Virus record (IMG/VR): IMGVR_UViG_3300000944_000005
Coordinates: 46,039 to 110,038 of that record
Origin: a virus
Length of the DNA stretch: 64,000 nt
Direction: 5' to 3' (one strand)
Position numbers and translations under genes: made by a program. Shown here piece after piece: positions 7,424 to 41,138 of the stretch. A model generated the notes under the pieces. The model searched no databases. It was not told where the DNA came from and saw only the letters and a list, made by a program, of their open reading frames with translations. Each line of letters opens with the position of its first letter. Within the stretch, counting starts at the first letter, position 1.

Positions 7424-8326
7424 TTAATAACGTCTCCTGCGGAACCCACGGTAACTCATGTGAGTTCTAAATTTCATTGATTTTTTAGTTTCTAGTAATT
7501 GCTTAGTACGTTCCGGGTCACCAGTCATCAAACCGACTGGGTAACGACACGTCTGAGCAACATACCTACAAATAAGTTTACGTGTAGGTCGTTCAATTCT
7601 TTCACATTTACCCACCGCAGTTAACCGCTCAGGTGTAGCGACATCAGCTCTAATTTTGAGCAACTGTCGATTAGTAATAACCCATTTGGTACCTTCGGTG
7701 TTTGGTTCAAATGTAGTATAGAGTAAAGCACCCACAGGGTCTATTAGACGAATGAAACTTGCTCTCGCTGATGTAATTTGTTGCATCAATTTGCGTAATG
7801 CCTCGATGACACCGTTACCGTCAGTTACCTCGCGATTGAACGTATGTTTCCGGAACAACATGTGATAACGAAACTCAGGCTGTCGTTGTGTAGTAGGGGT
7901 GTCATCTGGATCAATCAGTACATTTCGAAACTCTCGCCCGAGTGATTGCTCCTCTTCTGTTAACTCAACAGGATCAGGTGCGGGAAAACATGAATCGATA
8001 CGTTGCCACACCTCTCGTACGCGTCTAGCGTAACAGAAAGGACAAATAGTATAGTTTCTACATGTTCTCGTTATTGGATTTGCTAATGCAAACGTTGGTA
8101 CGCAGTTACGCGCATATAGGACTGAATGACTGGTGTTACCAGAAAGCCAACCTTGATTAGTCAAGTTACCTATACGCGCTCGCCATTGTTCTTGTAATTT
8201 AATCGTCTCTGCCGTAACACTGAAACCTTGGCTCCGTTTACGTAGAGGGTAGAGCACCGCCAGTCGTTGAACGATGTCAACGTACCTTTGAGGTTCTCCA
8301 TGAAAGGTAAATTCATAATCAGCCAT
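7424..8326 (-). CDS. hypothetical protein with CxxxxxCPFC cluster
   Basis: About 300-aa ORF containing RTCRNYTICPFCYARRV; start adjusted to MADYEF. Confidence 0.65.
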   Translation of the reverse strand: MADYEFTFHGEPQRYVDIVQRLAVLYPLRKRSQGFSVTAETIKLQEQWRARIGNLTNQGWLSGNTSHSVLYARNCVPTFALANPITRTCRNYTICPFCYARRVREVWQRIDSCFPAPDPVELTEEEQSLGREFRNVLIDPDDTPTTQRQPEFRYHMLFRKHTFNREVTDGNGVIEALRKLMQQITSARASFIRLIDPVGALLYTTFEPNTEGTKWVITNRQLLKIRADVATPERLTAVGKCERIERPTRKLICRYVAQTCRYPVGLMTGDPERTKQLLETKKSMKFRTHMSYRGFRRRRY

Positions 8327-8981: not shown

Positions 8982-9812
8982 TCACTCCCTTAGTGCATCC
9001 GCGTCACGATTAATTTCCAGCGCTTCGTGCATTGAAATAATATGCGTAGGGGCTGCTTGGTTAACGTCGCTCCAAACTAATAAACGTAACTCTCCTGCAC
9101 GAAACTCCAAAGCTGCCAAAGTACCATTAGGTCGAAAAGAGTTACTATACCCATCAGCTAATAACATAACAGCTAACGAAGTAACCCTAAGCGTGACTAA
9201 CTGCGTTGGTCGTTGTCGTGATCCTGTGGATGCTTCAAAAGCATCTTGATCCTGTAGTGATTGCCTAATCGTAAGGTTGTTATCACTCGTCGCGTTCACT
9301 CGTTGTGGGAGATTGGTTATTGCGACATCGTTATCTACCCAATACACATGGTTACCTGTGAGTTTACAGTACAAATCCACCGCAGCTTCTTTACTAATTA
9401 AGTCTGCGATATGTTGCGCTACTCCTTCAGGTGTGCGGCCGTACAAACCCCACAGCCTCACATCCACACGTCGAATATCGAATGATGTGAACGCACGAGT
9501 TTCGTGGTTGACGTTTGTGGTTGGTGACTCGCCACCTGCGTCAATAATACTAATTTCAGCAAGTGTACGTAGTGACGACTCACTCAACTGACTATTTGCG
9601 TTAATGATACTTAGAGAATACGACTCACCAATTTCGTGTAGTTGTGTAGTGCTCCCACCGAGTTGCTCATTCAAAACAGCGGCGCACTGATTCAGGTACT
9701 GGTAGAGATCAGTTACGGGGCTATCACCAAAAATACGATCACGCCAGGCGTCATACGCACCGCTTGTGGTGATATTGGTGATCACTTCTAAATAGATGTT
9801 GTTGATACTCAT
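8982..9812 (-). CDS. hypothetical protein
   Basis: Long ORF; ATG at 9812 overlaps the upstream TGA (ATGA). Confidence 0.65.
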   Translation of the reverse strand: MSINNIYLEVITNITTSGAYDAWRDRIFGDSPVTDLYQYLNQCAAVLNEQLGGSTTQLHEIGESYSLSIINANSQLSESSLRTLAEISIIDAGGESPTTNVNHETRAFTSFDIRRVDVRLWGLYGRTPEGVAQHIADLISKEAAVDLYCKLTGNHVYWVDNDVAITNLPQRVNATSDNNLTIRQSLQDQDAFEASTGSRQRPTQLVTLRVTSLAVMLLADGYSNSFRPNGTLAALEFRAGELRLLVWSDVNQAAPTHIISMHEALEINRDADALRE

Positions 9813-10924
9813 GATTGCAACTGCACCAATTCTGTTGAGACGTCTTTCCACGCAAAGTTACGACCGAGTCCTGGTACTGCCGGACTACAGCTCGTCTTAT
9901 ACTTGTAAGGACGTTTCTGGTCATTGTACTCAGTACGGAACTGAAGCCTAGCCTCGGCCGCATTATCTGCCTCACAGACAAACTTAATCGGATCCGGTGC
10001 TTTATCGCCTTCAAACTCCTTGAGTCGAGCCGTGACAGTCCAGAAGCGGTCACCTCGGAAATGGTGCCCGTCACGGTAAAGCCGCTCCATCTCAATCGCC
10101 AGTTTGTAGTAATCAGGATCGACCACAGCCAGTCGTTTAATCTCTTGCCGCTTCATTGCTGGGCAGAAGAAACATGCTGACTTAGGTGGAAGTGGTAGAC
10201 CATGCCGTTTGATAATATCGCGACAAGCTTCACGGTCCATACCGTAATCACGCAACGGGTACGCTACGTCGTAGCGGTCTTTGAATTTTGGAAAACCGTC
10301 TTCGTTACAAATGTTAAAGTTACCTACAGCGTAAGTATCCCCACCACCTTTAACCCGATGATCTTCCCCAGCATCGAAACCGATGCACTTTAGGACGCGT
10401 TGTCCGCGAAGCCACGTTTGCCGGAGTGGTTCCGCGCGGAGTCATATCGGCTCCTGTGCTTCGATTTTCCATTTGACCGAGCAACTCTTACGCCCAAAGG
10501 CGATCCCAGGTAATGTGTAGTTTGCGAGCATGTTACCAACAATACCGTCGGACATGCGTACAATGTCCTCTTCTGTGATTGTCCGTAACTGTAAACGGTC
10601 AACAGCTTCGCGGACAGAATCTGCGTACTTTTTCGACGTCTTTGGAAGAGGTTGATACCGACATTCTTGGGGTGTCGGGTAACCGTGCTTATCTAAGTAC
10701 TCAGCGAACACGTCGCCGAACTCGTAGGTACCGATCTCTTCACCCATTGAAGGATCAGGTCGGCGTTTCTCACCGCCATGGTCTGCGCTGGTAATCAAAT
10801 CAATTGGGATACCGCGTTCGATATCGGCCAGTATCATTGCAGTAGAATTCCACCCTTTACCGTGACATACTGCTCTTGCTGGTGTCTCTCTTGGTTTATT
10901 CTGAAACCATGTAGACTCAATCAT
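9809..10924 (-). CDS. PAPS-reductase-like (adenine nucleotide alpha hydrolase family) protein interrupted by one in-frame TGA at 10442-10444
   Basis: ORFs 10442..11011 and 9809..10255 share a frame and are separated only by one TGA. Joined protein (371 aa) has HGKGWNSTAM, ADHGGE, SCSVKWKI, IGFDAGE, YPLRDYGMDREAC and PPKSACFFCP. Confidence 0.75.
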
Positions 10925-11555
10925 TAAATTTCTTTCGAAAATAAGCCAAACGTTTTTCTGCGTAGCTGTGAGATATACCCATAGCGTCTGCCAACGATCG
11001 GGCAGTGACACGTATTTGTTGTTTACTTAACCTTGCGACTGCGTCAGTCAATCGTTTGTCTGCATCAACTTTTTTACGTAACCGTTGGTTCGGTGGTGGT
11101 GTTTTAAACGACAAGTCTGGGTGATCGTGTGGACAGAAACCATAAAACCCAATTGCCTGGTTACAGTTATGGCATAGTACCCTAAAACCGTCAGGGTAAT
11201 CGTGCTTATTTAACCACCGATAAAGATGACCTTTGATCTCTTTACGATGAGTGTTACCGTTACCCTCAATGTGGTCGATTGAAAGAAATTCATAGGTGTC
11301 TTCACCACAACATTCACATACTGGTTTTACAGTACCAGAATAATGTTGTAACACTCGATAACGTAAGCGTTGACGGCTACGTGTATTTGCTTTCGTGGAA
11401 TCGGTCTTCCCGCCACGTTTACGCGAGGCTTGTTCGCATTCCCGGCATTGACTTCGACGATAACCAGGCCCTGATTTGTTAAACGAAATTATAGATCGAC
11501 GTTTTTTGCATTCAGGGCAGACTTTAAAACGACGCCCTGCTTCTTTAAATGGCAT
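10917..11555 (-). CDS. free-standing HNH endonuclease (probable homing endonuclease) with Zn ribbons and C-terminal HTH
   Basis: CECCG, LSIDHIEGNG, RVLCHNCN motifs; next to the RNR gene. Confidence 0.8.
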   Translation of the reverse strand: MPFKEAGRRFKVCPECKKRRSIISFNKSGPGYRRSQCRECEQASRKRGGKTDSTKANTRSRQRLRYRVLQHYSGTVKPVCECCGEDTYEFLSIDHIEGNGNTHRKEIKGHLYRWLNKHDYPDGFRVLCHNCNQAIGFYGFCPHDHPDLSFKTPPPNQRLRKKVDADKRLTDAVARLSKQQIRVTARSLADAMGISHSYAEKRLAYFRKKFND

Positions 11556-11564
11556 TTGTATCCT

Positions 11565-11604
11565 CCGGATGTGTTATTCCATAGTATACAGAAAACACAT
11601 CCGG
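11565..11604 (-). promoter_or_regulatory. 11-bp hairpin overlapping the Shine-Dalgarno of the HNH gene
   Basis: CCGGATGTGTT-18 nt-AACACATCCGG; the 3' arm on the minus strand includes the first GG of GGAGGA, 5 nt before the ATG. Confidence 0.5.
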
Positions 11605-11695
11605 TAAACAAAGACCAAAAGACAGCGGGGTTACAGACCAAGTGTAAATAAAATCCTTGAGTCCTCCCCCGCCGCCAATCTATCAATCGAGTCGC

Positions 11696-13672
11696 TTACT
11701 TCACAGGACATTGACCTGAAGAGCAGTCTTCTAACGCGAAATCATGGATACCGTGTAGTTGGCTCCAGTCAACTGGGCCAAGTTTTGAAACATACTCCCG
11801 GTATGGTTCTTCTGTCGTCACTTCTTGCGGAAGGTAAGCGTAACCTAAATCCTTCGCTGTCTTGGTAGGATCGTTACGCATCAACCATGACACTGCCACG
11901 AAGTCGTTCCAGTTACGGTACAACCACTCGACAATCTCGTCCAATTCAGACCTGTCCCACGACACAGTGATCGAAGTATTGTGATCGGTCCACAGAGTGT
12001 TCCAACGACGATACGTTTCGAGTTGCTTAATCGCAGAATCTTGATTCACTTCCTTACCGTCGACAACGTCAAAGTCACACCCAGAAAACTCTACTGGGAA
12101 ACAGATCAGTTTGTTGTTGGCGTCAGTCGGGTTATCCATGACGGAGTAACCAGCCTTAGCCAACATGTCTACGATAGGATCATCCTTGGAGAAGTTGATG
12201 TTGTTGAAGATATACCGACCAAGTGGTTTGTGGATACCTTCTGTCACATCCAGGATCTTCGACCCCGTTCCCTCAGGTTTGATTGTAGTCACCAGTTTAG
12301 GTTTTGGTAGCCCTAACTCGTCAGCCATGGAGTAAGCGCCCCACATGGCTGCGTTACGCATCTGTTTGATCTGGTAGTCCGTAAACCAGTTCGCTTGCGC
12401 AAGCCCAGTCAACGACATACCACAGAGACGTAAGGCCGCATTCGTCTGATCCCACTCCGGTCGTAATGTACCGTCGACGAGATCCACACAGGTTTGGCGG
12501 TAATTCGCTCGACCCATGATGTGCAACGCCCGCAGTAAACCTGCGAAGTCGTTCTTGAACTTTGGTGCGGCCGTGGTTACTAAGTTACAGAAACCACCTG
12601 CCGGAAGCAGGATCTCTGCACAAGGATTGAGTCCATCAAACCAAGGAGCCCGATTACGTGCTGCCTCTCCGTTGATGAACCCGGGTTCCGAACCACCACA
12701 GTCCCAAATCAACTGCATGATACTACGAATTTCTCGTTTCGTAGGTTTCTGCCAGAACACAACCGAGTTGTTAGATTGTTGACGGTGAGCATTGTCGTGC
12801 TCCCACCATTTGTTCTTAGCCATTGCGAACTGTTTCCATCGCGGATGTTTATAATCCATTACGGCGATCTGCGCTGATCGTCGCGATGATAAGACAGTCC
12901 CTAACCAATTCACTACATCCAACAGATCAATCTCGTCCAGTAGTTCGCCGGCCTTTGCGTTCATGATCTTGAAGATCGCCTTGTAAGCATCGACTAACGG
13001 TTCGGATCCATTACAGATCCAGCCGTAACCTTTAAGTCGCTTACCTGGCCCACGTACGTCGGTGAAATCAATCGTCAGTTTGTTAACCTTCGACTTGGGT
13101 GGGTTGAGTAGTTTACCTGCACTCTTCGCCCAAGCTTCAGCTGAATCACCGATCTTGATGTACCACTCGTAGTTGTTTTCCGCTGTCGGCTTCACCTCTT
13201 TGTTAGCCGGATCTCCTTTATGATCCGGTGGTTGATTAGATGGATGAATCTCCAAGTCTGGAATCTTCTGAAGGAACCCGTGAAGGTTACCTGTCAACGG
13301 TCGAAAACCCACACCGCATCCGTTGAGTAATAACCAGAAAATATCGACGATCTGGTAAACGGAATTCGCGTGGGTGTAAGAGCAATTGAACTGAGAACAG
13401 GCGCGTGACCGAGAGTACTCGGTACCACCTAACCAAAGTGTACGACCAGCTACTAATGCTTTGCGGTCCAACACGAGGTCGTGTAGTTCCTGCAGTTCAT
13501 CAGTGTTTGGTGTTCCTCCGGCTCCCTCCCATAAATCTTTGTGATGATCAATCGTTGATCGTTGTACAGTTTCCTGCCAGGTTTCAAGAACCTTTCCGTC
13601 CTCGTCTTTAGGACGATTGTAAGTGCGTCGCGTAACGGCTTCAGCGCGAGCACTTGGCGCAATTGTAGACAT
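11696..13672 (-). CDS. nrdJ: class II (AdoCbl-dependent) ribonucleotide reductase
   Basis: RTYNRP, GRTLWLGG, FNCS, NGCGVGF, NPCAEI, FCNL, TTIKPEGTGS and C-terminal CxxxxCP; no beta subunit nearby. Confidence 0.92.
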   Translation of the reverse strand: MSTIAPSARAEAVTRRTYNRPKDEDGKVLETWQETVQRSTIDHHKDLWEGAGGTPNTDELQELHDLVLDRKALVAGRTLWLGGTEYSRSRACSQFNCSYTHANSVYQIVDIFWLLLNGCGVGFRPLTGNLHGFLQKIPDLEIHPSNQPPDHKGDPANKEVKPTAENNYEWYIKIGDSAEAWAKSAGKLLNPPKSKVNKLTIDFTDVRGPGKRLKGYGWICNGSEPLVDAYKAIFKIMNAKAGELLDEIDLLDVVNWLGTVLSSRRSAQIAVMDYKHPRWKQFAMAKNKWWEHDNAHRQQSNNSVVFWQKPTKREIRSIMQLIWDCGGSEPGFINGEAARNRAPWFDGLNPCAEILLPAGGFCNLVTTAAPKFKNDFAGLLRALHIMGRANYRQTCVDLVDGTLRPEWDQTNAALRLCGMSLTGLAQANWFTDYQIKQMRNAAMWGAYSMADELGLPKPKLVTTIKPEGTGSKILDVTEGIHKPLGRYIFNNINFSKDDPIVDMLAKAGYSVMDNPTDANNKLICFPVEFSGCDFDVVDGKEVNQDSAIKQLETYRRWNTLWTDHNTSITVSWDRSELDEIVEWLYRNWNDFVAVSWLMRNDPTKTAKDLGYAYLPQEVTTEEPYREYVSKLGPVDWSQLHGIHDFALEDCSSGQCPVK

Positions 13673-13782
13673 AAAAACGTCAATCCTTTCAAGTACCCCA
13701 GAAAATTGGGGTGGTTAAGATATTTCCAACTAACAAGCTGGCCAGTATACTGGGGCTTGGGTGGAAAAGGTAGATCAGGAAA

Positions 13783-13855
13783 TACGGGTGGAGGGACTCG
13801 AACCCCCAACTATTGGCTTTGAAAGCCACTACTCTACCAATTGAGTTACACCCGC
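13783..13855 (-). tRNA. tRNA with anticodon UCA (opal suppressor / tRNA-Trp(UCA)-like)
   Basis: Minus strand GCGGGTG TA ACTC AATTGGTA GAGT A GTGGC TTTCAAA GCCAA TAGTT GGGGG TTCGAGT CCCTC CACCCGT A folds as a standard cloverleaf. Anticodon loop is UU-UCA-AA, variable loop is short, CCA is not encoded. Confidence 0.92.
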
Positions 13856-13983
13856 GTATCAATCCTAATTTTTACAAGGAACAGAAAATGAAAGACACAT
13901 GATCTAATCAACACGAACCAGGTAAAGTTGTACTATCACTCAACCTTCCAGCCCTTGAAAGACTTTTAGGTGGCGATTCTGAA

Positions 13984-14490
13984 TTGGAGGTTGAGTTGCG
14001 ACAACAGGTCGCGAATTCTTTTGCTGGGAAGCATCTGAAATCTTTACTCAACACCAAGATGGTGAAAGACAGTCTCGCTGATGCACAGTCCGATGTCAAC
14101 AAGTTAGTAGAAGCTGGGCGTAAAGAAGCCCGAAAATATCTAGCTAAACAAGTTGGTGAAATCAAAAAACGGAACTGGCGCGAAGAGGTTGAACTTAATG
14201 ATAAGTTCAAAAACAAAATCTGTCAAAAAATGCGTAAAGCTGCTGAAGACGCGATCCCTCTTGATACGATCGTCGAGAAATTAAACGAACGTACTGAGTA
14301 CTTAAAAGATCACTTTGATCAACGGATAAAAAAAGCAGTACGCGCGTACATGGATGATGGTTTTAAGAAAGCAGTAGACGCTGAAGTTCAACGAATCATC
14401 AGTAACGCTTTCGACATCGGACGTGACCGTAACGATAAGTCACGCGTTGTTCTCGTTGACCCACCTACTCCTTCGACAGAGTCAGCGTAA
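13984..14490 (+). CDS. hypothetical helical/coiled-coil protein
   Basis: 168-aa Lys-rich ORF on the minority strand, followed by a hairpin; start uncertain. Confidence 0.6.
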   Translation: MEVELRQQVANSFAGKHLKSLLNTKMVKDSLADAQSDVNKLVEAGRKEARKYLAKQVGEIKKRNWREEVELNDKFKNKICQKMRKAAEDAIPLDTIVEKLNERTEYLKDHFDQRIKKAVRAYMDDGFKKAVDAEVQRIISNAFDIGRDRNDKSRVVLVDPPTPSTESA

Positions 14491-28740: not shown

Positions 28741-30354
28741 GTCACAATGCACAAAGCCCATTGTAGGCTGTTGAGTGCGAACGCATGCTGTCACAATGTA
28801 CAAAGCCCACTGTAGGCGTTGAAATCACAACGGGTGTCAGATACGCTGTCGTCACAATGTACGAAGCCCACTGTAGGCTGTTGGGATCACCCGCATTCTT
28901 GTCACAATGTACGAAGCCCATCGTAGGCTGTTGAGATCCAACTAATTTGAAGTCACAATGTACGAAGCCCACTGTAGGCTGTTGAGTCTCGGAGTGATGC
29001 TGTTACAAGGGTCACAATGTACGAAGCCCACTGTAGGCGTTGAATCTATTATAGCTTGTCCTTGCCGGTCACAATGAACTAAGCCCATTGTAGGCTGTTG
29101 AGTCACGGAATGGCCACAGTCACAATGTACGAAGCCCACTGTAGGCTGTTGTTGTCGCTCCCTTTCGTCACAATGTACAAAACCCATTGTAGGTGTTGAA
29201 CCTGTTAACTACGAGTCACAATGTACGAAGCCCATTGTAGGCTGTTGTCAATGATGGGGAACCAACTGGTCACATCAAACTAAGCCTGATGTAGGCTGTT
29301 GAGATCATTCGCATTCCGTCACAATGTACGAAGCCCACTGTAGGCTGTTGAGGTAGCGTGAGTCCGCTATCGTTCGACCCACTTTTGACCGAGTCACAAT
29401 GAACTAAGCCCATTGTAGGCTGTTGAGTCGCGGAATGGACGCTGTCACAATGTACGAAGCCCATTGTAGGCAGTTGTGTTAGTTATTTCAGTTTGATGTA
29501 CGAGTCACAATGTACGAAGCCCGTTGTAGGCGTTGAGATAATTGTTTCTTGATGGTCAACGGTCACAATGTACGAAGCCCACTGTAGGCTGTTGGTATCA
29601 GTCCGTCGCACCGGTCACAATGTACGAAGCCCATTGTAAGCTGTTGGCATCACTTAATGGCCGTCACAATGAACGAAGCCCACTGTAGGCTGTTGAGGGT
29701 CAACGCATGCTGTCACAATGTACGAAGCCCACTGTAGGCGTTGGTTTCATTCGGGCCACGTCACAATGTACGAAGCCCACTGTAGGCGTTGGTAGTACTG
29801 AAGTCAAGCATGTCACAATGTACGAAGCCCACTGTAGGCGTTGAGTACTCAATTGCCCAGGTCACAATGTACGAAACCCATTGTAGGTGTTGAATGAATA
29901 GTCACCCCAAAATAGTCACAATGTACGAAGCCCACTGTAGGCGTTGAGATCCAACTAACTCTCGTACTGTCACAATGTACGGAGGCACATTTGAAGTCAC
30001 AATGAACTAAGCCCATTGTAGGCTGTTGAGACTTCAGGTGTAATACTTAATACCAATAACATCTGTCACAATGTACGAAGCCCACTGTAGGCGTTGAATT
30101 TTTGAATTGTTTTCGCCAGTTGGTTACAATGTACTAAGCCCATTGTAGGCTGTTGAGACTTGGTTGAAGATGGCGCCCACAACGTAGTCACAATGTACGA
30201 AGCCCACTGTAGGCGTTGATATTCTGCGACTTGCACAGTCACAATGTACGAAGCCCACTGTAGGCTGTTGACTCAATCGATTCTTTTTGGTGCCCACTCA
30301 ATTACAGGCACACCATCGTCACAATGTACGAAGCCCACTGTAGGCTGTTGAGAC
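28741..30354 (-). CRISPR. CRISPR array: 29 full repeats plus 1 truncated repeat (29969-29981), spacers 15-47 nt
   Basis: Plus-strand core GTCACAATGTACGAAGCCCACTGTAGGC(T)GTTG; likely full minus-strand repeat GTCTCAACAGCCTACAGTGGGCTTCGTACATTGTGAC. Stem AGCCUA/UGGGCU forms only on the minus strand (U.G wobble versus C.A mismatch), which is the same strand as the adjacent cas gene. Confidence 0.95.
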
Positions 30355-30379
30355 CCTACCAGTTCAACCTGGTAGGGTC
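30352..30379. other. perfect 11-bp hairpin abutting the cas-proximal repeat
   Basis: GACCCTACCAG-TTCAAC-CTGGTAGGGTC. Confidence 0.7.
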
Positions 30380-30430
30380 ACACAGTTATAACCATTATTT
30401 ACTAACTTATGTTAACGGTACTTGTCGATT

Positions 30431-32341
30431 TTAGCGACGTTTTGCTTCTGCGAACTCCGTATAAGGAACTGCATCAGGTATCCGCGATAACATAATGTTC
30501 GCGGCGTTGATGTCTTGATCAACTGTGTAGGTACAATGTGAGCAATGATACTCAAGTTTAGCCGAATCCCAATCTTCCGTAACCTGTCCGCAGGTCGAAC
30601 ACGTACGAGTCATGTTGACAGACGTGACAACACTCACATTACTCTGACCGAAAATTTCTACGGCACATTGACGGAGTAAACCGGGAGAAGCGATCCTCGC
30701 TAGTCGCCGTTGGTTAGCCACCAACACAACTTTCTCGTCGTCTTTCTCCTTCTTCCCGAGCGTAGCCCAGTTTGTAGAGTCCACAATCAAATGTGTGTAA
30801 CGACCGGACAACCTGCGTAACCAATCACGGTAAACATGTTTACGATTGCGTATCGCTTTCTTATTGATAGAAGCAGACTCTTGTAAGATATGCCGATCCC
30901 ACGATCGCCAAAATTCCATGATACCAAACACAGTTTGTATGTCGGATGGGTGACGTTTTCTTCTAACTGCAGGGCTATTTAACTTTGACTCTGCCCAAGG
31001 TAGTGAGTTAGTAAAGAACTGCGCTGAAGTTTCAGTATCCATCACAAACCGATTATCTCGCCAGAGTTCTACTGTTCGATATAACGATTCTGGAGATTGG
31101 TGACTAGCTAGTGTCTGAGTACGTTCAACCAACCATTCAGGTACATCGATACTGGCTAACCAGTCAAGGAATTCACCTCTTATGATGTTGAACCGATCGG
31201 CGCGAATTCCTTGTAACGAATCTGGTCTAGAGAATCGGCGAAGTTTATCACTGGATAGAAATAGTTGACTAACTTGCTGCGTAGCATCCATTACTGTGGC
31301 ACACCGTAACTGTTCATCAATCATGCGATGACCCAGGTGTAACACACAGGTATTGGATTTATCAACTGTCGAAACAACATCATCAACTTTGATTGTGAGT
31401 CGTATCTCCCAGTACTCCTTTTTACCCACACGTTTCAGATGTGCGAACCCATCAATGATTTTCGCACTTGCGGGGAAGTCACGATGATGCACATAAGGGA
31501 AAGTAGCAAATACAGGATTACCGTCGTCGTCACGGCACACGAGGAAACGTATTGTACCTTTCGCAACCTCTCCGCGATCTTGACCAATAACAAGTCGTTC
31601 GCTCCCTGGTGGGATGTGGATGTGTAGAATTTCAGAGTTGTTTTCCATTACTGCAGCTACTGGTTTACCTCCTTGAAACCTTACTCCGATAGCTCCACTA
31701 CCTTCCCAACGACGGAACTTAGGCGGTGGACCTTTTTTGTAAGTTTTTTCCGCAATCTGTTCCATGATTCTGGAGGTACCCCAGTAAACACCAGATTGCT
31801 GTCGCGCAATTTTAGCTTCACGTGCGTGGGCTATTTGTCCATCATCTAAACCGGCTTCCTCCACCAGTTCAAAATAACGCACCTTTCGCTGACGCTTTAA
31901 CTGAGACTCAGTTTCATCAGCTAACTGAGTGATCTCCTGGGCAGCTTGATCTTGATAAACCTTATGTGCATCTCGAATCAATTTCTTCGCAACTTTGTAT
32001 GCGGCATCTAGTTGTGCGATCGCTGTTTTTCTTACAGCTTTGGCTTGATTGATTCTAGCTTTTTGTGAATCAGTAGGTTCATGACGACGACGAGCTCGTT
32101 GACGTGAAAGACGTAAATCTTTATAGGCCTCATCAAGTTCGGCAACTGCCCGATCGTAGATTGTTACAGCATCTGCGTAAGCTGGGCACAAAGATGCAGC
32201 TAACGTTTTGTAAGTAGCACGCCGATTATGCTCTAACTCGATTAATTGATTACGGTAGCGGTGGTTGAGTAAGATTTGATTCTTAACCGCTGCAACATTT
32301 GTTGGTTCTTCAGAACGGTACACCCAGTTAATCACTGGCAT
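30431..32341 (-). CDS. cas12m: type V-M (V-U1/C2c4) CRISPR effector Cas12m-like, with non-canonical RuvC
   Basis: 636 aa, adjacent to the array. Motifs match those recalled for Cas12m: long Arg-rich coiled coil, YWGT, RRWEGSGAIGVRFQ, VHHR, RuvC-I VLHLGHR (D to H), RuvC-II IVDST (E to D), SPGLLR, TRTCSTCG...CSHC zinc ribbon and RuvC-III DQDINAA. Confidence 0.85.
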   Translation of the reverse strand: MPVINWVYRSEEPTNVAAVKNQILLNHRYRNQLIELEHNRRATYKTLAASLCPAYADAVTIYDRAVAELDEAYKDLRLSRQRARRRHEPTDSQKARINQAKAVRKTAIAQLDAAYKVAKKLIRDAHKVYQDQAAQEITQLADETESQLKRQRKVRYFELVEEAGLDDGQIAHAREAKIARQQSGVYWGTSRIMEQIAEKTYKKGPPPKFRRWEGSGAIGVRFQGGKPVAAVMENNSEILHIHIPPGSERLVIGQDRGEVAKGTIRFLVCRDDDGNPVFATFPYVHHRDFPASAKIIDGFAHLKRVGKKEYWEIRLTIKVDDVVSTVDKSNTCVLHLGHRMIDEQLRCATVMDATQQVSQLFLSSDKLRRFSRPDSLQGIRADRFNIIRGEFLDWLASIDVPEWLVERTQTLASHQSPESLYRTVELWRDNRFVMDTETSAQFFTNSLPWAESKLNSPAVRRKRHPSDIQTVFGIMEFWRSWDRHILQESASINKKAIRNRKHVYRDWLRRLSGRYTHLIVDSTNWATLGKKEKDDEKVVLVANQRRLARIASPGLLRQCAVEIFGQSNVSVVTSVNMTRTCSTCGQVTEDWDSAKLEYHCSHCTYTVDQDINAANIMLSRIPDAVPYTEFAEAKRR

Positions 32342-37926: not shown

Positions 37927-40900
37927 ATGACGTCGATTCAAACAGTAAGTAAAACATCAGCTATATCGACTGCTGATGTTGGTAAGATCCTCACCGCGAT
38001 CACCGCGGATAAGGTATCAGGGCGTAAACAAAGTAACGTCGACCGAATTGTACAGATCCGGAAACTTGCGCAACAAGGGGGAATGCATACACTGGAACCG
38101 CTTCTCCCGTTGTGTTTAACACTGCAAGGAGAACCGTACGAATTATCGGATCACTTCCCATTCTCACCTGTGTTCCATACGACAATGCCGTCGTCACTGG
38201 TTCTAAAAACTGGCCGGCAGGTTTCGAAATGCGTCCGAAAAAACTCAGTGTTCAACCGTGTCTACGACCAGTACGGTCGACGTAACCGGTTGGAGGATTT
38301 AACACCGGGTCAACTGGTGCAATCTCTGGACATCAAAACTTTTCGATCAGGTAACCGTGAGGTCCTATTTCAACATCGCAACCCGACCAAAACCTGTTAC
38401 TTCATTCGTACCCGTAGGGGTGTCGAAATGGAGTTGGCTGGTACTCATCCGCTGTACACGTACAACGGGTGGACCACAGTGGGTGATCTTGATGTAGGTG
38501 ATCGCATCATTCACGTTCGTCAGGGTGGGAAGTTCGGACGTAAGAAAGTTGATGACCGGCGTATTCGTGTCACAGCCTACATGCTGGGTGATGGGTCTTT
38601 TCGCGGTAGTTACAGTTTTACGGCTAACCGCGAGACAAGCGCCCTTACGGAGATGCGAAGCCTACTTCAAGACTTCAGGGAGTACCCAAAATCAGAGAGT
38701 AAGGCGACTAGTCTTTGCGTTAATCACGACCATGTAATCTACGACTGGTCGCGTGAGGATAACTTACATGGCAAACTATCACACGAGAAATATATTCCGG
38801 ATTGGGTGTTCTTGTTACCACGTGTTAGTACTCGTACGTTTATTGAGCGACTGTGGGCAACCGACGGAATGGTTAAACTGCATAAGTCCAAAGCAACAAT
38901 TTCGTACACGTCTACGTCCCGAGAACTTGTTTACGATCTCAAGTCATTACTTTCAAAGTTCGGTATTCCGACGTCAGTTAAAGAGAGAACTGGTGCTTAC
39001 AAGAAGCCTGACGGGAGGAAAGTTAAATGTCGGCAATACTGGGTACTCCGCGTGGAGACTTTAGCAGGTTGGCGGACGTTTATGTCGGAGTTCAATGTAC
39101 CCGATAAACCAGGATTCGCGTTACCTGAACGAGAACCCAACAACAACCGATACACGACACCGGTTGAAATCGGTGAGCTTATCAGTGATATTGCGGGTGA
39201 GTGTAGAGGTACTAGTAAAACTGCACTCTTACAGTACGGGCTAAGGAAGAAACCAAAGTACCCGCCGTCACGGGCTAAGATGCGACGTTATTTGGATTTC
39301 TTTCAGGCGTATCGTCCAGACCATCCGAGACTAGGTGAGTTTTCGAAATATGTTGACCGATGTGTAGATTGGGACGAGATCGTAGAGATCCGAAATATCG
39401 GTAAACACGAGTGTATCGACATAGAGGTAGCGGATACTCACAACTACTTACTGGACGGCGTAGCCGCACACAATTCGACGTCACTCGCGTCACACGGCGT
39501 GATGCTGGCGAATTGCATCCCCTTTTTTCGAACCCTGTATGTGACTCCACTTTACGAACAGATCCGCCGCTTCTCCAATAATTATGTAAGACCGTTTATT
39601 GATCGCTCACCGATCAAACCTTTATGGTCCGGTACCTCAACAGAGAACTCAGTTCTTCAACGTTCATTCAAGAACTTGTCGATGATGATTTTCTCTTTCG
39701 CATTGATGGATGCGGATCGTGTTCGTGGTATCTCCGCTGATAAAGTTGCGATCGACGAAGTCCAGGACATGGATCCTGATCACCTCCCGATTATTCGTGA
39801 GGTTATGTCACACTCCAAATACGGGTTGTTTCAATTCACCGGGGTCTTGGCCCCGTCCTTTGGTTAGGGCGGGGCCAAGGCCTTGAACATGTAACTCCAA
39901 AATCTTTGGACAACCCTCTCGAAGGTCTCTTCCGTAGATCGTCACAAGCAGAGTGGTTCATCCCATGTCATGCATGTGGTAAGGATAACATCCCGACAAT
40001 CGAGTTTCATATTGATGCGATGATCGGTCCGTATCATGACGAGATTTCAGAGAACTGTCCGGCAACAATTTGTTACAACTGTCGTCGTCCGATCTTTCCT
40101 CGTCAAGGTCGTTGGGTTCATCGTTACCCGCAGCGGCGTTGGAAGATGGCTGGGTATCATGTACCTCAGATCATCATGCCGTTGCACTACAGTTCACCAG
40201 ACAAGTGGGCGACGTTGTTAGCTAAACGGGAGGGTTGGGGTAACACAACTCAAGCGATGTTCTACAACGAAGTCTTGGGTGAGTCTGTCGATGCGGGGCA
40301 GAAGCTTATCTCAGAATCGGAACTACGTGGCGCTGCAAGTCTTCCGTGGAAGAACAACCCAGATGATCCTAGTCGTCTGATGACTGACCGTCTTCAACAT
40401 TACACCAAACGTGTGTTGTCTGTTGACTGGGGTGGTGGCGGTGAAGACGGTACTTCGTTTACAGCACTTTCGTTGTTGGGTATGACACCTACTGGGCAGA
40501 TCCACGTACTTTGGGGTAAACGATTAATCGTCTCACAGGAGCATTTACGTGAAGCTCGTGAAGTGTTTCACTGGTTCCGTGTGTTCAATTGTCACTTGAT
40601 GGCACATGACTATACCGGAGCCGGTACAGTACGTGAGACTGTTATGGTACAGGCCGGTATATCCTTAGACAGTGTGATGGCGATGCGGTTAGTACGATCA
40701 GCATCTGCAGGTTTGGTGACATTCAAACCACCGACTCCGATTCATCCGCGTCAGCACTACAATATTGATAAGACGAGAACGTTACTCTACACATTCCAAG
40801 CGATCAAACTTAAATTGATTCAGACGTTCTCGTACGACTATGTAAATGACGACAACCCAGGCCTTCTCTCCGACTTCCTTGCGTTAGTCGAAGAGAAAGC

Positions 40901-41138
40901 TGAGAGTCGTTTGTCTAGCGACATTTATACGATCACACGTAACCCGATGTTAACTGATGACTTTGCTCAGGCAGTTAACTTAGGTTGTGCGGCGTTGTGG
41001 CACTCTGAAGGTCGTTGGCCGAACTTTGCAGAGGCCGCAGCTATTGGTCGCGTGACCAACAGTCAGATCCTGGCAGCAGGAAATACTGATTATGGCTGGA
41101 ATGAAGATCGCCGAGGCGGGTTCTTCAATATGCCTTAA
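37927..41138 (+). CDS. terL: large terminase subunit (gpA-like), with an intein and split by a 50-nt frame-breaking hairpin at 39844-39893
   Basis: KTGRQVSK|ST Walker A, RVRGISAD, IDEVQD Walker B, FQFTG|TPKS, CHACG/CYNC Zn, FYNEVLG and VDWG nuclease motif. Confidence 0.85.
38230..39474 (+). mobile_element. intein (415 aa) with LAGLIDADG homing endonuclease, inserted in the terminase Walker A
   Basis: Starts at C (K|CVRKNS) and ends HN followed by S (AAHN|STS); HPLYT block B; LAGLIDADG-like YMLGDGS and LWATDGMV. Confidence 0.93.
39844..39893 (+). other. 50-nt GC-rich hairpin coding gap in terL
   Basis: GTCTTGGCCCCGTCCT-TTGGTT-AGGGCGGGGCCAAGGC stem (16+ bp) with an in-frame TAG; removing it joins FQFTG to TPKSLDN. 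Confidence 0.75.

Follow-up and report, generated by a model that had tools for sequence, protein, structure and literature searches.

A phage tRNA(UCA) resembling tRNA-Trp as a putative partial opal suppressor, with a UGA-interrupted PP-loop enzyme gene as candidate client

Results

The tRNA gene and its neighborhood

The window, i.e., the whole 64-kb stretch of viral DNA that was analyzed, belongs to a 155,625-bp (155.6-kb) record, which is linear according to IMG/VR and about 75% complete according to CheckV. ARAGORN detected one tRNA gene, with the anticodon tca at position 34, as the initial annotation had read it; this was the sole tRNA found by the program both in the window and in the entire record. 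The tRNA gene is followed, on the same strand and with short gaps, by the nrdJ gene, which begins 110 nt downstream of the tRNA, an HNH endonuclease gene and, 2.9 kb downstream, a PAPS-reductase-like gene interrupted by an in-frame TGA, which we consider as the candidate client (Table 1). No convincing terminator was found between the tRNA and this gene. On the other side, a divergent plus-strand ORF (13984-14490), encoding a 168-aa charged and probably coiled-coil protein with no family match, leaves an intergenic region of 128 nt (13856-13983), where the tRNA promoter must lie. A sigma-70-like site at 14226-14198 was not relied on as a promoter, since it is located inside this ORF.

Table 1. 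Features of the tRNA locus and of the candidate client gene (window coordinates).
Feature	Position	Strand	Details
tRNA gene, anticodon UCA	13783..13855	minus	73 nt; ARAGORN, Rfam RF00005, fold
Anticodon U34-C35-A36	13820..13822	minus	TGA on plus strand; U34 is base 13822
Anticodon arm	13813..13829	minus	G27 (13829) opposite A43 (13813); U32 at 13824
Discriminator A73 (13783) and U72 (13784)	13783..13784	minus	U72 pairs with G1 (13855)
Class II (B12-dependent) ribonucleotide reductase, nrdJ	11696..13672	minus	phrog_367, E 5.8e-153; Pfam RNR domains
HNH / endonuclease VII-like gene	10917..11555	minus	phrog_2255, E 5.4e-15; between reductase and client
PAPS-reductase-like (PP-loop fold) gene, candidate client	9809..10924	minus	371 codons including one in-frame TGA
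In-frame TGA, codon 161, next base C	10442..10444	minus	conserved in related phages
Possible hairpin, starting 4 nt past UGA	10403..10440	minus	RNAfold; weak
GTW-repeat protein, 267 aa	16826..17629	minus	(S/N)GTW repeats; 40 Trp, all TGG

Elsewhere in the window, the large terminase is split into two plus-strand ORFs (37927-39867 and 39906-41138), which are in different frames with about 40 nt between them; the first also encodes a LAGLIDADG-containing intein (Pfam Intein_splicing and LAGLIDADG_3). The 636-aa product of a minus-strand gene (30431-32341) contains a Cas12f1-like/TnpB zinc-ribbon domain (PF07282), and the adjoining region (28741-30430) contains only very short ORFs under code 11. 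The GTW-repeat protein had only a weak match, to phrog_14105, a phage family whose function is not known.

A megablast search against 50,697 phage records for close relatives and a search for the reductase in IMG/VR gave no match, and tblastn with the terminase reached only about 30% identity. Shine-Dalgarno motifs precede 44% of the genes, versus 11% in the background. As to the host, FCB-group MAGs supplied the nearest tRNA-Trp bodies; this contrasts with the frequency of Shine-Dalgarno motifs and with the heptose genes reported in an earlier note, the latter of which would fit a proteobacterial host.

Structure of the tRNA

The tRNA gene matched the Rfam tRNA model RF00005 over model positions 1-71, with 67.6 bits versus a gathering score of 29 (E 1.4e-12), and its predicted cloverleaf had a free energy of -27.3 kcal/mol (z -3.1). 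Direct reading of the sequence gave an acceptor stem of 7 bp closed by G1.U72, a T stem of 5 bp, a variable loop of 5 nt, the discriminator A73, and no encoded CCA at the 3' end. The geometry is that of a canonical elongator tRNA (7/4/5/5 stems, 7-nt anticodon loop, U33), the sole irregularity being the G27.A43 mismatch, which reduces the anticodon stem to 4 bp; every other stem is intact. The anticodon loop reads UU-UCA-AA, and an A36-A37-A38 loop is typical of tRNAs for codons beginning with U. G1.U72, A73, the G27.A43 mismatch, and the anticodon loop, as well as the D and T arms, are as described in the initial annotation, which had noted a well-formed cloverleaf.

ARAGORN labeled the gene "SeC", a label that derives from the anticodon alone. 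Bacterial tRNA-Sec is characterized by an 8+5 acceptor/T geometry, a long variable arm, a 6-bp D stem, and G73; the 7-bp acceptor stem, 5-bp T stem, 5-nt variable loop, and A73 of the phage tRNA exclude this class, as had been proposed from the short variable loop, and Rfam retained a match to the tRNA model and none to tRNA-Sec.

Kinship of the tRNA body and charging

A blastn search against deposited phages returned mixed isotypes, with a tRNA-Gly at 80% as the top match, and the comparison was therefore widened to cellular tRNAs. A scan of 185,579 species genomes, using a D-loop and T-arm pattern with the first anticodon base left free, matched almost exclusively tRNA-Trp(CCA). The nearest cellular bodies were tRNA-Trp(CCA) from Ignavibacteriae and Cyclobacteriaceae MAGs (62/73), in line with the resemblance to bacterial tRNA-Trp noted at the outset. 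Both of these matches differ from the phage tRNA at position 73, and one Ignavibacteriae tRNA-Trp has the same acceptor stem save for position 1. The best incidental tRNA-Gly(UCC) reached 59/73, sharing the 5' half of the phage tRNA and not its 3' half.

Of 88 unique tRNA-Trp relatives of cellular origin, all 88 had G73 and a paired 27:43 position, 86 had A1:U72, and 85 had C32. The phage tRNA departs from these relatives at U34, A73, G1.U72, U32, and G27.A43. It thus has the body of a bacterial tRNA-Trp, and from the bacterial tRNA-Trp identity set (G73, C34-C35-A36, A1:U72) it keeps C35 and A36 alone; A73, G1.U72, and U34 all move off this set, which counts against charging with Trp.

Two other isotypes were considered and rejected. 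tRNA-Gly, defined by U73, G1:C72, C2:G71, G3:C70, and C35-C36, and including the tRNA-Gly(UCA) of code 25, fails on A73, G1.U72, and A36, despite the presence of C2:G71, G3:C70, and C35; the C2:G71 pair also occurs in 16 of the 88 tRNA-Trp relatives. The identity set of tRNA-Arg comprises A20, C35, and G36 or U36. This isotype, considered because sense-codon relatives of the client gene carry Arg (see below), fails on U20 and A36, although C35 and the permissive A73 fit.

G73 is the main acceptor determinant for bacterial TrpRS; in the case of B. subtilis TrpRS, G73A lowers charging about 9-fold, and the E. coli enzyme can do without distinguishing C34 from U34 (PMC12135181). As the cost of G73A is only about 9-fold with that enzyme, Trp charging of the phage tRNA would be weakened, not excluded. 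Moreover, a phage tRNA(UCA) bearing A73 functions with a phage TrpRS (10.1101/2025.10.30.685624); no TrpRS, RF1, or RF2 gene was found in the 155.6-kb record (about 75% complete). tRNAs with a G27-A43 mismatch or with an anticodon stem of 4 bp are reported to suppress stop codons better, and this extends to UGA readthrough by E. coli tRNA-Trp (PMC13092985). We infer that the phage tRNA is charged, most likely with Trp and probably less efficiently owing to A73, and that it is probably a tRNA-Trp retuned for UGA. It falls outside the strict tRNA-Trp identity set and outside the tRNA-Sec and tRNA-Gly classes, yet it is assumed to work like tRNA-Trp(UCA).

Conservation of the anticodon

The initial annotation had considered that the reads might show CCA, i.e., that the UCA anticodon might be an error. 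Public contigs were aligned over positions 9700-14200, a region found in none of the RNA runs; the source is an "algae metagenome", and two relatives (X2 and X6) come from marine metagenomes of two other studies. The phage-like contigs, about 95% (X2) and about 91% (X6) identical, kept A at 13822, i.e., U34. In each of the three runs X1, X2, and X6, the depth with A at 13822 was that of the run's phage-like contig. Nearly all the aligned depth at 13822 in each run was G, originating from abundant cellular tRNAs with C34 that were at least 80% alike. These co-aligned cellular tRNAs carry C34, G10, C25, U31-A39, and G42; all the non-phage-like contigs, from four metagenomes, had C34, and the commonest loose 3' end among the co-aligned contigs was ...GGCCUG-CCA, corresponding to canonical bacterial tRNA-Trp. 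In the phage's own environment, tRNA-Trp(CCA) is thus also the closest sequence type. Since diverged relatives in other samples keep U34, the UCA anticodon is not an assembly or sequencing error, and it is conserved among diverged phage relatives.

Searches for an orthologous tRNA gave no match with the exact anticodon-arm pattern in IMG/VR, and only two false matches, both tRNA-Leu(CAA), with a D-loop/anticodon-loop/T-loop pattern in the same database. The same kind of pattern yielded 38 other tRNA(UCA) in JGI metagenomes, none of them orthologous (best 56/73). A marine tRNA(UCA) recurred in at least 10 metagenome contigs (L012, L016, L023, L024, L030, L032, L036, L040, L051, and L060); in L060, the one contig examined, it is mitochondrial, with a COX3 gene containing 13 in-frame TGA codons (code 4). 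This recurrent tRNA is unrelated to the phage tRNA.

UGA as a stop codon in the phage

Greedy ORF coverage was 92.3% under code 11 versus 89.7% with TGA as a sense codon, and codes 4, 25, and 15 were rejected on coding coverage, which was best under code 11. TGA is the stop codon of 54 out of 176 ORFs of at least 70 aa (31%), and 17 of these stops lie within ATGA overlaps. The features of a code 4 or code 25 phage were absent, as a single gene carries an in-frame TGA and TGA is common as a stop; the GC content is 47%. UGA is therefore a normal stop codon in this phage, which uses the standard code. The comparison of coding densities that had been suggested and the count of stops both bear out the initial statement that UGA is not globally reassigned.

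A back-up stop was present within 5 codons after 44% of the TGA stops, versus 28% of the TAA/TAG stops (Fisher p 0.025; Mann-Whitney p 0.047; both uncorrected), which is a weak hint of adaptation. The base following genuine TGA stops was most often T (22 out of 54), and that following the recoded UGA of the client is C; in E. coli, UGA followed by C is the leakiest context.

The in-frame UGA of the PAPS-reductase-like gene

A single alignment to phrog_424 (PAPS reductase) runs over residues 22-302 of the client, across the stop, and alignments to homologous database proteins 330-370 aa long extend over 92-95% of the joined protein. No ATG, GTG, or TTG restart occurs for 62 codons past the TGA. 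In the AlphaFold model, the joined protein forms one globular fold with strands from both halves (pLDDT 89, pTM 0.86), and residue 161 is located inside helix 149-163. The weak fold matches of the model all belonged to the PP-loop enzymes (CysH, YcfA, GMP synthase, and argininosuccinate synthase). Sequence searches in Pfam, NCBIfam, and PDB yielded no match, and the naming of the client is based on PHROGs and these fold matches. Either half alone is unlikely to work, according to the model, and the alignments and predicted fold indicate that the full-length PAPS-reductase-like enzyme would need UGA readthrough.

In a genome-wide scan, the TGA at codon 161 was the sole TGA with a strong coding signal on both sides and without a restart, and no further UGA client was found in the 155.6-kb record (about 75% complete). 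Same-frame neighbors at 8982 and 34533 were rejected as readthrough candidates, as they are ordinary adjacent genes with a start codon 2 and 7 codons past the stop, respectively, the restart at 8982 being preceded by an AGGGAG Shine-Dalgarno motif. All other long extensions lacked a coding signal.

Across 120 homologues, column 161 is variable and often hydrophobic (C23, I20, V17, R16, L14, F4), so Trp would be tolerable there.

Conservation of the UGA across phage lineages

Many database homologues of the client are C-terminal halves only, of about 209 aa. In every contig fetched for these half-length homologues, a same-frame ORF lies upstream and stops with TGA precisely at the aligned codon. 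The TGA at codon 161 was found in six lineages, namely this phage and L001, L002, L003/L004, L007/L008, and L194, and single tblastn alignments run across the stop, with 50-60% identity in the halves on either side. The surrounding codons show many synonymous differences between lineages, and the TGA-bearing loci have a GC content of 51-61%, versus 47% here. Sense-codon relatives have Arg at this site, encoded by CGA in the nearest of them and by CGC and CGG in more distant ones, and never Trp. In a maximum-likelihood tree, all TGA forms fell into one clade (support 99/96) together with four Arg forms, and all forms outside this clade had Arg. The simplest history that these sequences suggest is that CGA changed to TGA once and that the TGA was then retained for long, with a few reversions. 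Judged from the aligned loci, the UGA is conserved and is not a private mutation. It has the characteristics of a programmed readthrough site, i.e., a conserved stop, constraint on both flanks, and no downstream start, as far as sequence and predicted fold indicate.

The relatives bearing the client gene are much smaller phages with different gene neighborhoods. The closest in IMG/VR (60% identity; IMGVR_UViG_2939533428_000001, here L194, with the site at 8187) is a record classed as a provirus. No tRNA was found in this 41-kb record, which is 77% complete, or in the L002 contig, 97% of which was read. As both keep the UGA without a tRNA on the approximately 40 kb seen, the gate can be maintained in the absence of a phage tRNA, the UGA presumably being read by near-cognate tRNAs of the host, and the tRNA of the phage studied here looks like a lineage-specific addition. 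In relatives (L007, 7368-8228; L005, 12563-15405), the gated gene adjoins an ordinary second PAPS_reduct gene or Mom-like and DNA methylase genes, which hints that the enzyme may be part of a DNA-modification module.

A possible RNA structure around the UGA, with weak support, was seen at 10370-10459 on the minus strand and at the matching positions of L001, L002, L003, L007, and L194. In a consensus of five TGA-bearing sequences, a hairpin lies 3-5 nt past the stop, with a few compensatory pairs and a register that shifts between sequences. In a longer pairing, the QEP codons immediately preceding the UGA are matched with the IGFD codons about 58 nt past it; 6-9 of its 9 pairs are kept in TGA forms, versus 4-6 of 9 in Arg forms.

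Discussion

A role in UGA decoding is the best reading of the phage tRNA, given that diverged relatives retain U34 and that one gene in the genome depends on UGA readthrough. On balance, and by a modest measure, we consider it probable that the tRNA is a retuned tRNA-Trp that acts as an opal suppressor with partial readthrough, its one identifiable client being the conserved UGA-gated PP-loop enzyme gene. It would be a working elongator derived from a bacterial tRNA-Trp, with its anticodon changed from CCA to UCA, and would pair with UGA in competition with release factor 2 (RF2). The G27.A43 mismatch and U32 may raise UGA decoding, and the tRNA may lift the yield of full-length enzyme above that given by host near-cognate readthrough, with the UGA at codon 161 serving as a putative translational gate that sets the enzyme level. 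As the phage has 54 TGA-ended genes and uses the standard code, suppression must be partial; with 31% of the genes ending in TGA, strong suppression would extend many proteins, which counts against it. The initial annotation had proposed partial, possibly timed readthrough in competition with RF2: the decoding of UGA stands as the best reading, and timing is a putative feature, the whole basis for which is the gene order. The link between the tRNA and the client gene is plausible but inferred from one genome.

More tentatively, the tRNA and the gene could form a dedicated suppressor-and-client pair, in which an old gate (leaky termination) shared among unrelated phages would be opened in this large marine phage by a recruited and retuned host tRNA-Trp; this we regard as possible rather than probable. 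The retuning would then comprise UCA, the unpinned 27:43 position, U32, and A73, which would limit charging, with the rest of the genome not recoded. The proximity of the tRNA could instead be coincidental, with the conserved UGA read by the host machinery alone. In Q-beta, UGA readthrough by host tRNA-Trp extends the coat protein to the A1 protein, so that short and long products are made in a fixed ratio, and leaky, near-cognate reading of the same kind might suffice here; the tRNA(UCA) would then be a general low-level suppressor or serve clients yet unseen. This is rather unlikely. It would account for the two relatives in which the UGA is retained and about 40 kb of sequence contains no tRNA, for the failure of pattern searches to find an orthologous tRNA in IMG/VR or JGI contigs, and for the occurrence of the client in much smaller phages with other gene neighborhoods. 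However, the records of the tRNA-less relatives are incomplete, the gene is found 2.9 kb from the tRNA on the same strand, no convincing terminator separating the two, and 155.6 kb of sequence contained no other client. The resemblance to Q-beta is that the full product of a phage gene depends on low-level UGA decoding; the Q-beta extension is an added domain, whereas the UGA of the present gene falls inside a single enzyme fold and the phage carries a cognate tRNA of its own.

A wider code switch, of which the tRNA would be the first step or a part, appears improbable. More genes that carry in-frame TGA codons (e.g., late or lysis genes) might be located in the missing 25% or so of the record (CheckV completeness about 75%), as in the TGA-recoded Agate, Jade, and zeta crAss-like phages (10.1101/2021.08.26.457843; PMC7886860), which likewise carry a phage tRNA cognate to UGA, predicted to insert Trp in competition with RF2 in a host presumed to use the standard code. 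Suppressor tRNAs occur in both TGA- and TAG-recoded gut phages (Borges et al., 10.1101/2021.08.26.457843). These recoded phages have many in-frame TGAs in late and lysis genes, a low coding density under code 11, few TGA stops, and a low GC content, and they sometimes encode RF1 or TrpRS; here, neither gene was found, nor was RF2, and a single gene has an in-frame TGA. A further parallel is a standard-code Agate phage with an acquired TGA suppressor tRNA, read as a possible precursor of recoding after the loss of TGA stops (Borges et al., Fig. 3A; 10.1101/2021.08.26.457843). In that model TGA stops are depleted first (4 out of 146 genes, or 2.7%, in the example) and the GC content is low, whereas the present phage shows no depletion (31% of genes; GC 47%) and one conserved recoded gene, and its structural-looking regions are free of in-frame TGA.

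We consider it slightly less probable still that the tRNA has no decoding role, being a decoy or replacement against a host tRNA-targeting defense, a processing signal for the nrdJ transcript, or a decaying gene. The altered identity elements (A73, G1.U72) could be understood in this way, but the high Rfam score, the integrity of all stems bar 27:43, the retention of U34 in the relatives of about 91% and 95% identity, and an A36-A37-A38 loop suited to codons starting with U count against it. A shade lower in probability is a main function as an extra tRNA-Trp, reading UGG through U34 wobble for Trp-rich proteins, with UGA reading as a tolerated side effect. The Trp-like body is compatible with this, as is the ability of tRNA-Trp(UCA) to read both UGA and UGG in code-4 organisms, and a gene for a GTW-repeat protein lies 3 kb away; the figure of about 40 Trp codons given for it in the initial annotation is exact (40 Trp in 267 residues). 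Extra supply for this gene is possible and nothing requires it: Trp accounts for only 1.56% of codons, the anticodon CCA would provide Trp and leave the 54 stops unsuppressed, and U34, A73, and the 27:43 mismatch are absent from cellular tRNA-Trp, which points to selection beyond UGG reading. Finally, the UGA at codon 161 could be read as selenocysteine through host SelB and a SECIS-like hairpin, independently of the tRNA. This is highly improbable, even though the hairpin tends to follow the UGA by 3-5 nt in TGA-bearing sequences and distant homologues have Cys more often than any other residue at this column (23 out of 107): the nearest sense-codon relatives have Arg and not Cys, the variability of column 161 argues against a catalytic Cys, the hairpin register is not conserved and its z-scores are weak, and the phage tRNA has no tRNA-Sec features.

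Returning to the retuned tRNA-Trp, its separate features have parallels elsewhere. Like the tRNA-Trp(UCA) of code-4 bacteria and mitochondria, it combines a Trp-type body with UCA; in code-4 genomes UGA is fully a sense codon, RF2 is absent or irrelevant, and the bacterial tRNA has G73, whereas here UGA terminates and position 73 is A. The unpaired 27:43 position is shared with tRNA-Trp variants with a 4-bp stem, which raises readthrough in E. coli (PMC13092985; Komine and Inokuchi 1990, cited there). Those variants had the CCA anticodon or were laboratory CUA constructs, whereas the present mismatch occurs in a phage, together with a cognate UCA and A73.

Most discussion of phage suppressor tRNAs has treated them as drivers of stop-codon recoding across whole genomes, from which this case differs. 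If the tRNA and the gene are indeed linked, a suppressor tRNA can be used to regulate an individual gene, and the dedicated pair, if true, would represent gene-specific control by a private tRNA and not a change of code. The host genome of the L194 provirus could reveal a cellular tRNA that reads the UGA gate. The phage tRNA also offers a natural case in which features linked to suppressor strength and charging in the laboratory (unpinning of 27:43, position 32, and discriminator 73) have all changed together. With one tRNA, one codon, and one enzyme, it would provide a tractable model in which readthrough can be set against damage to the phage's own TGA-ended genes.
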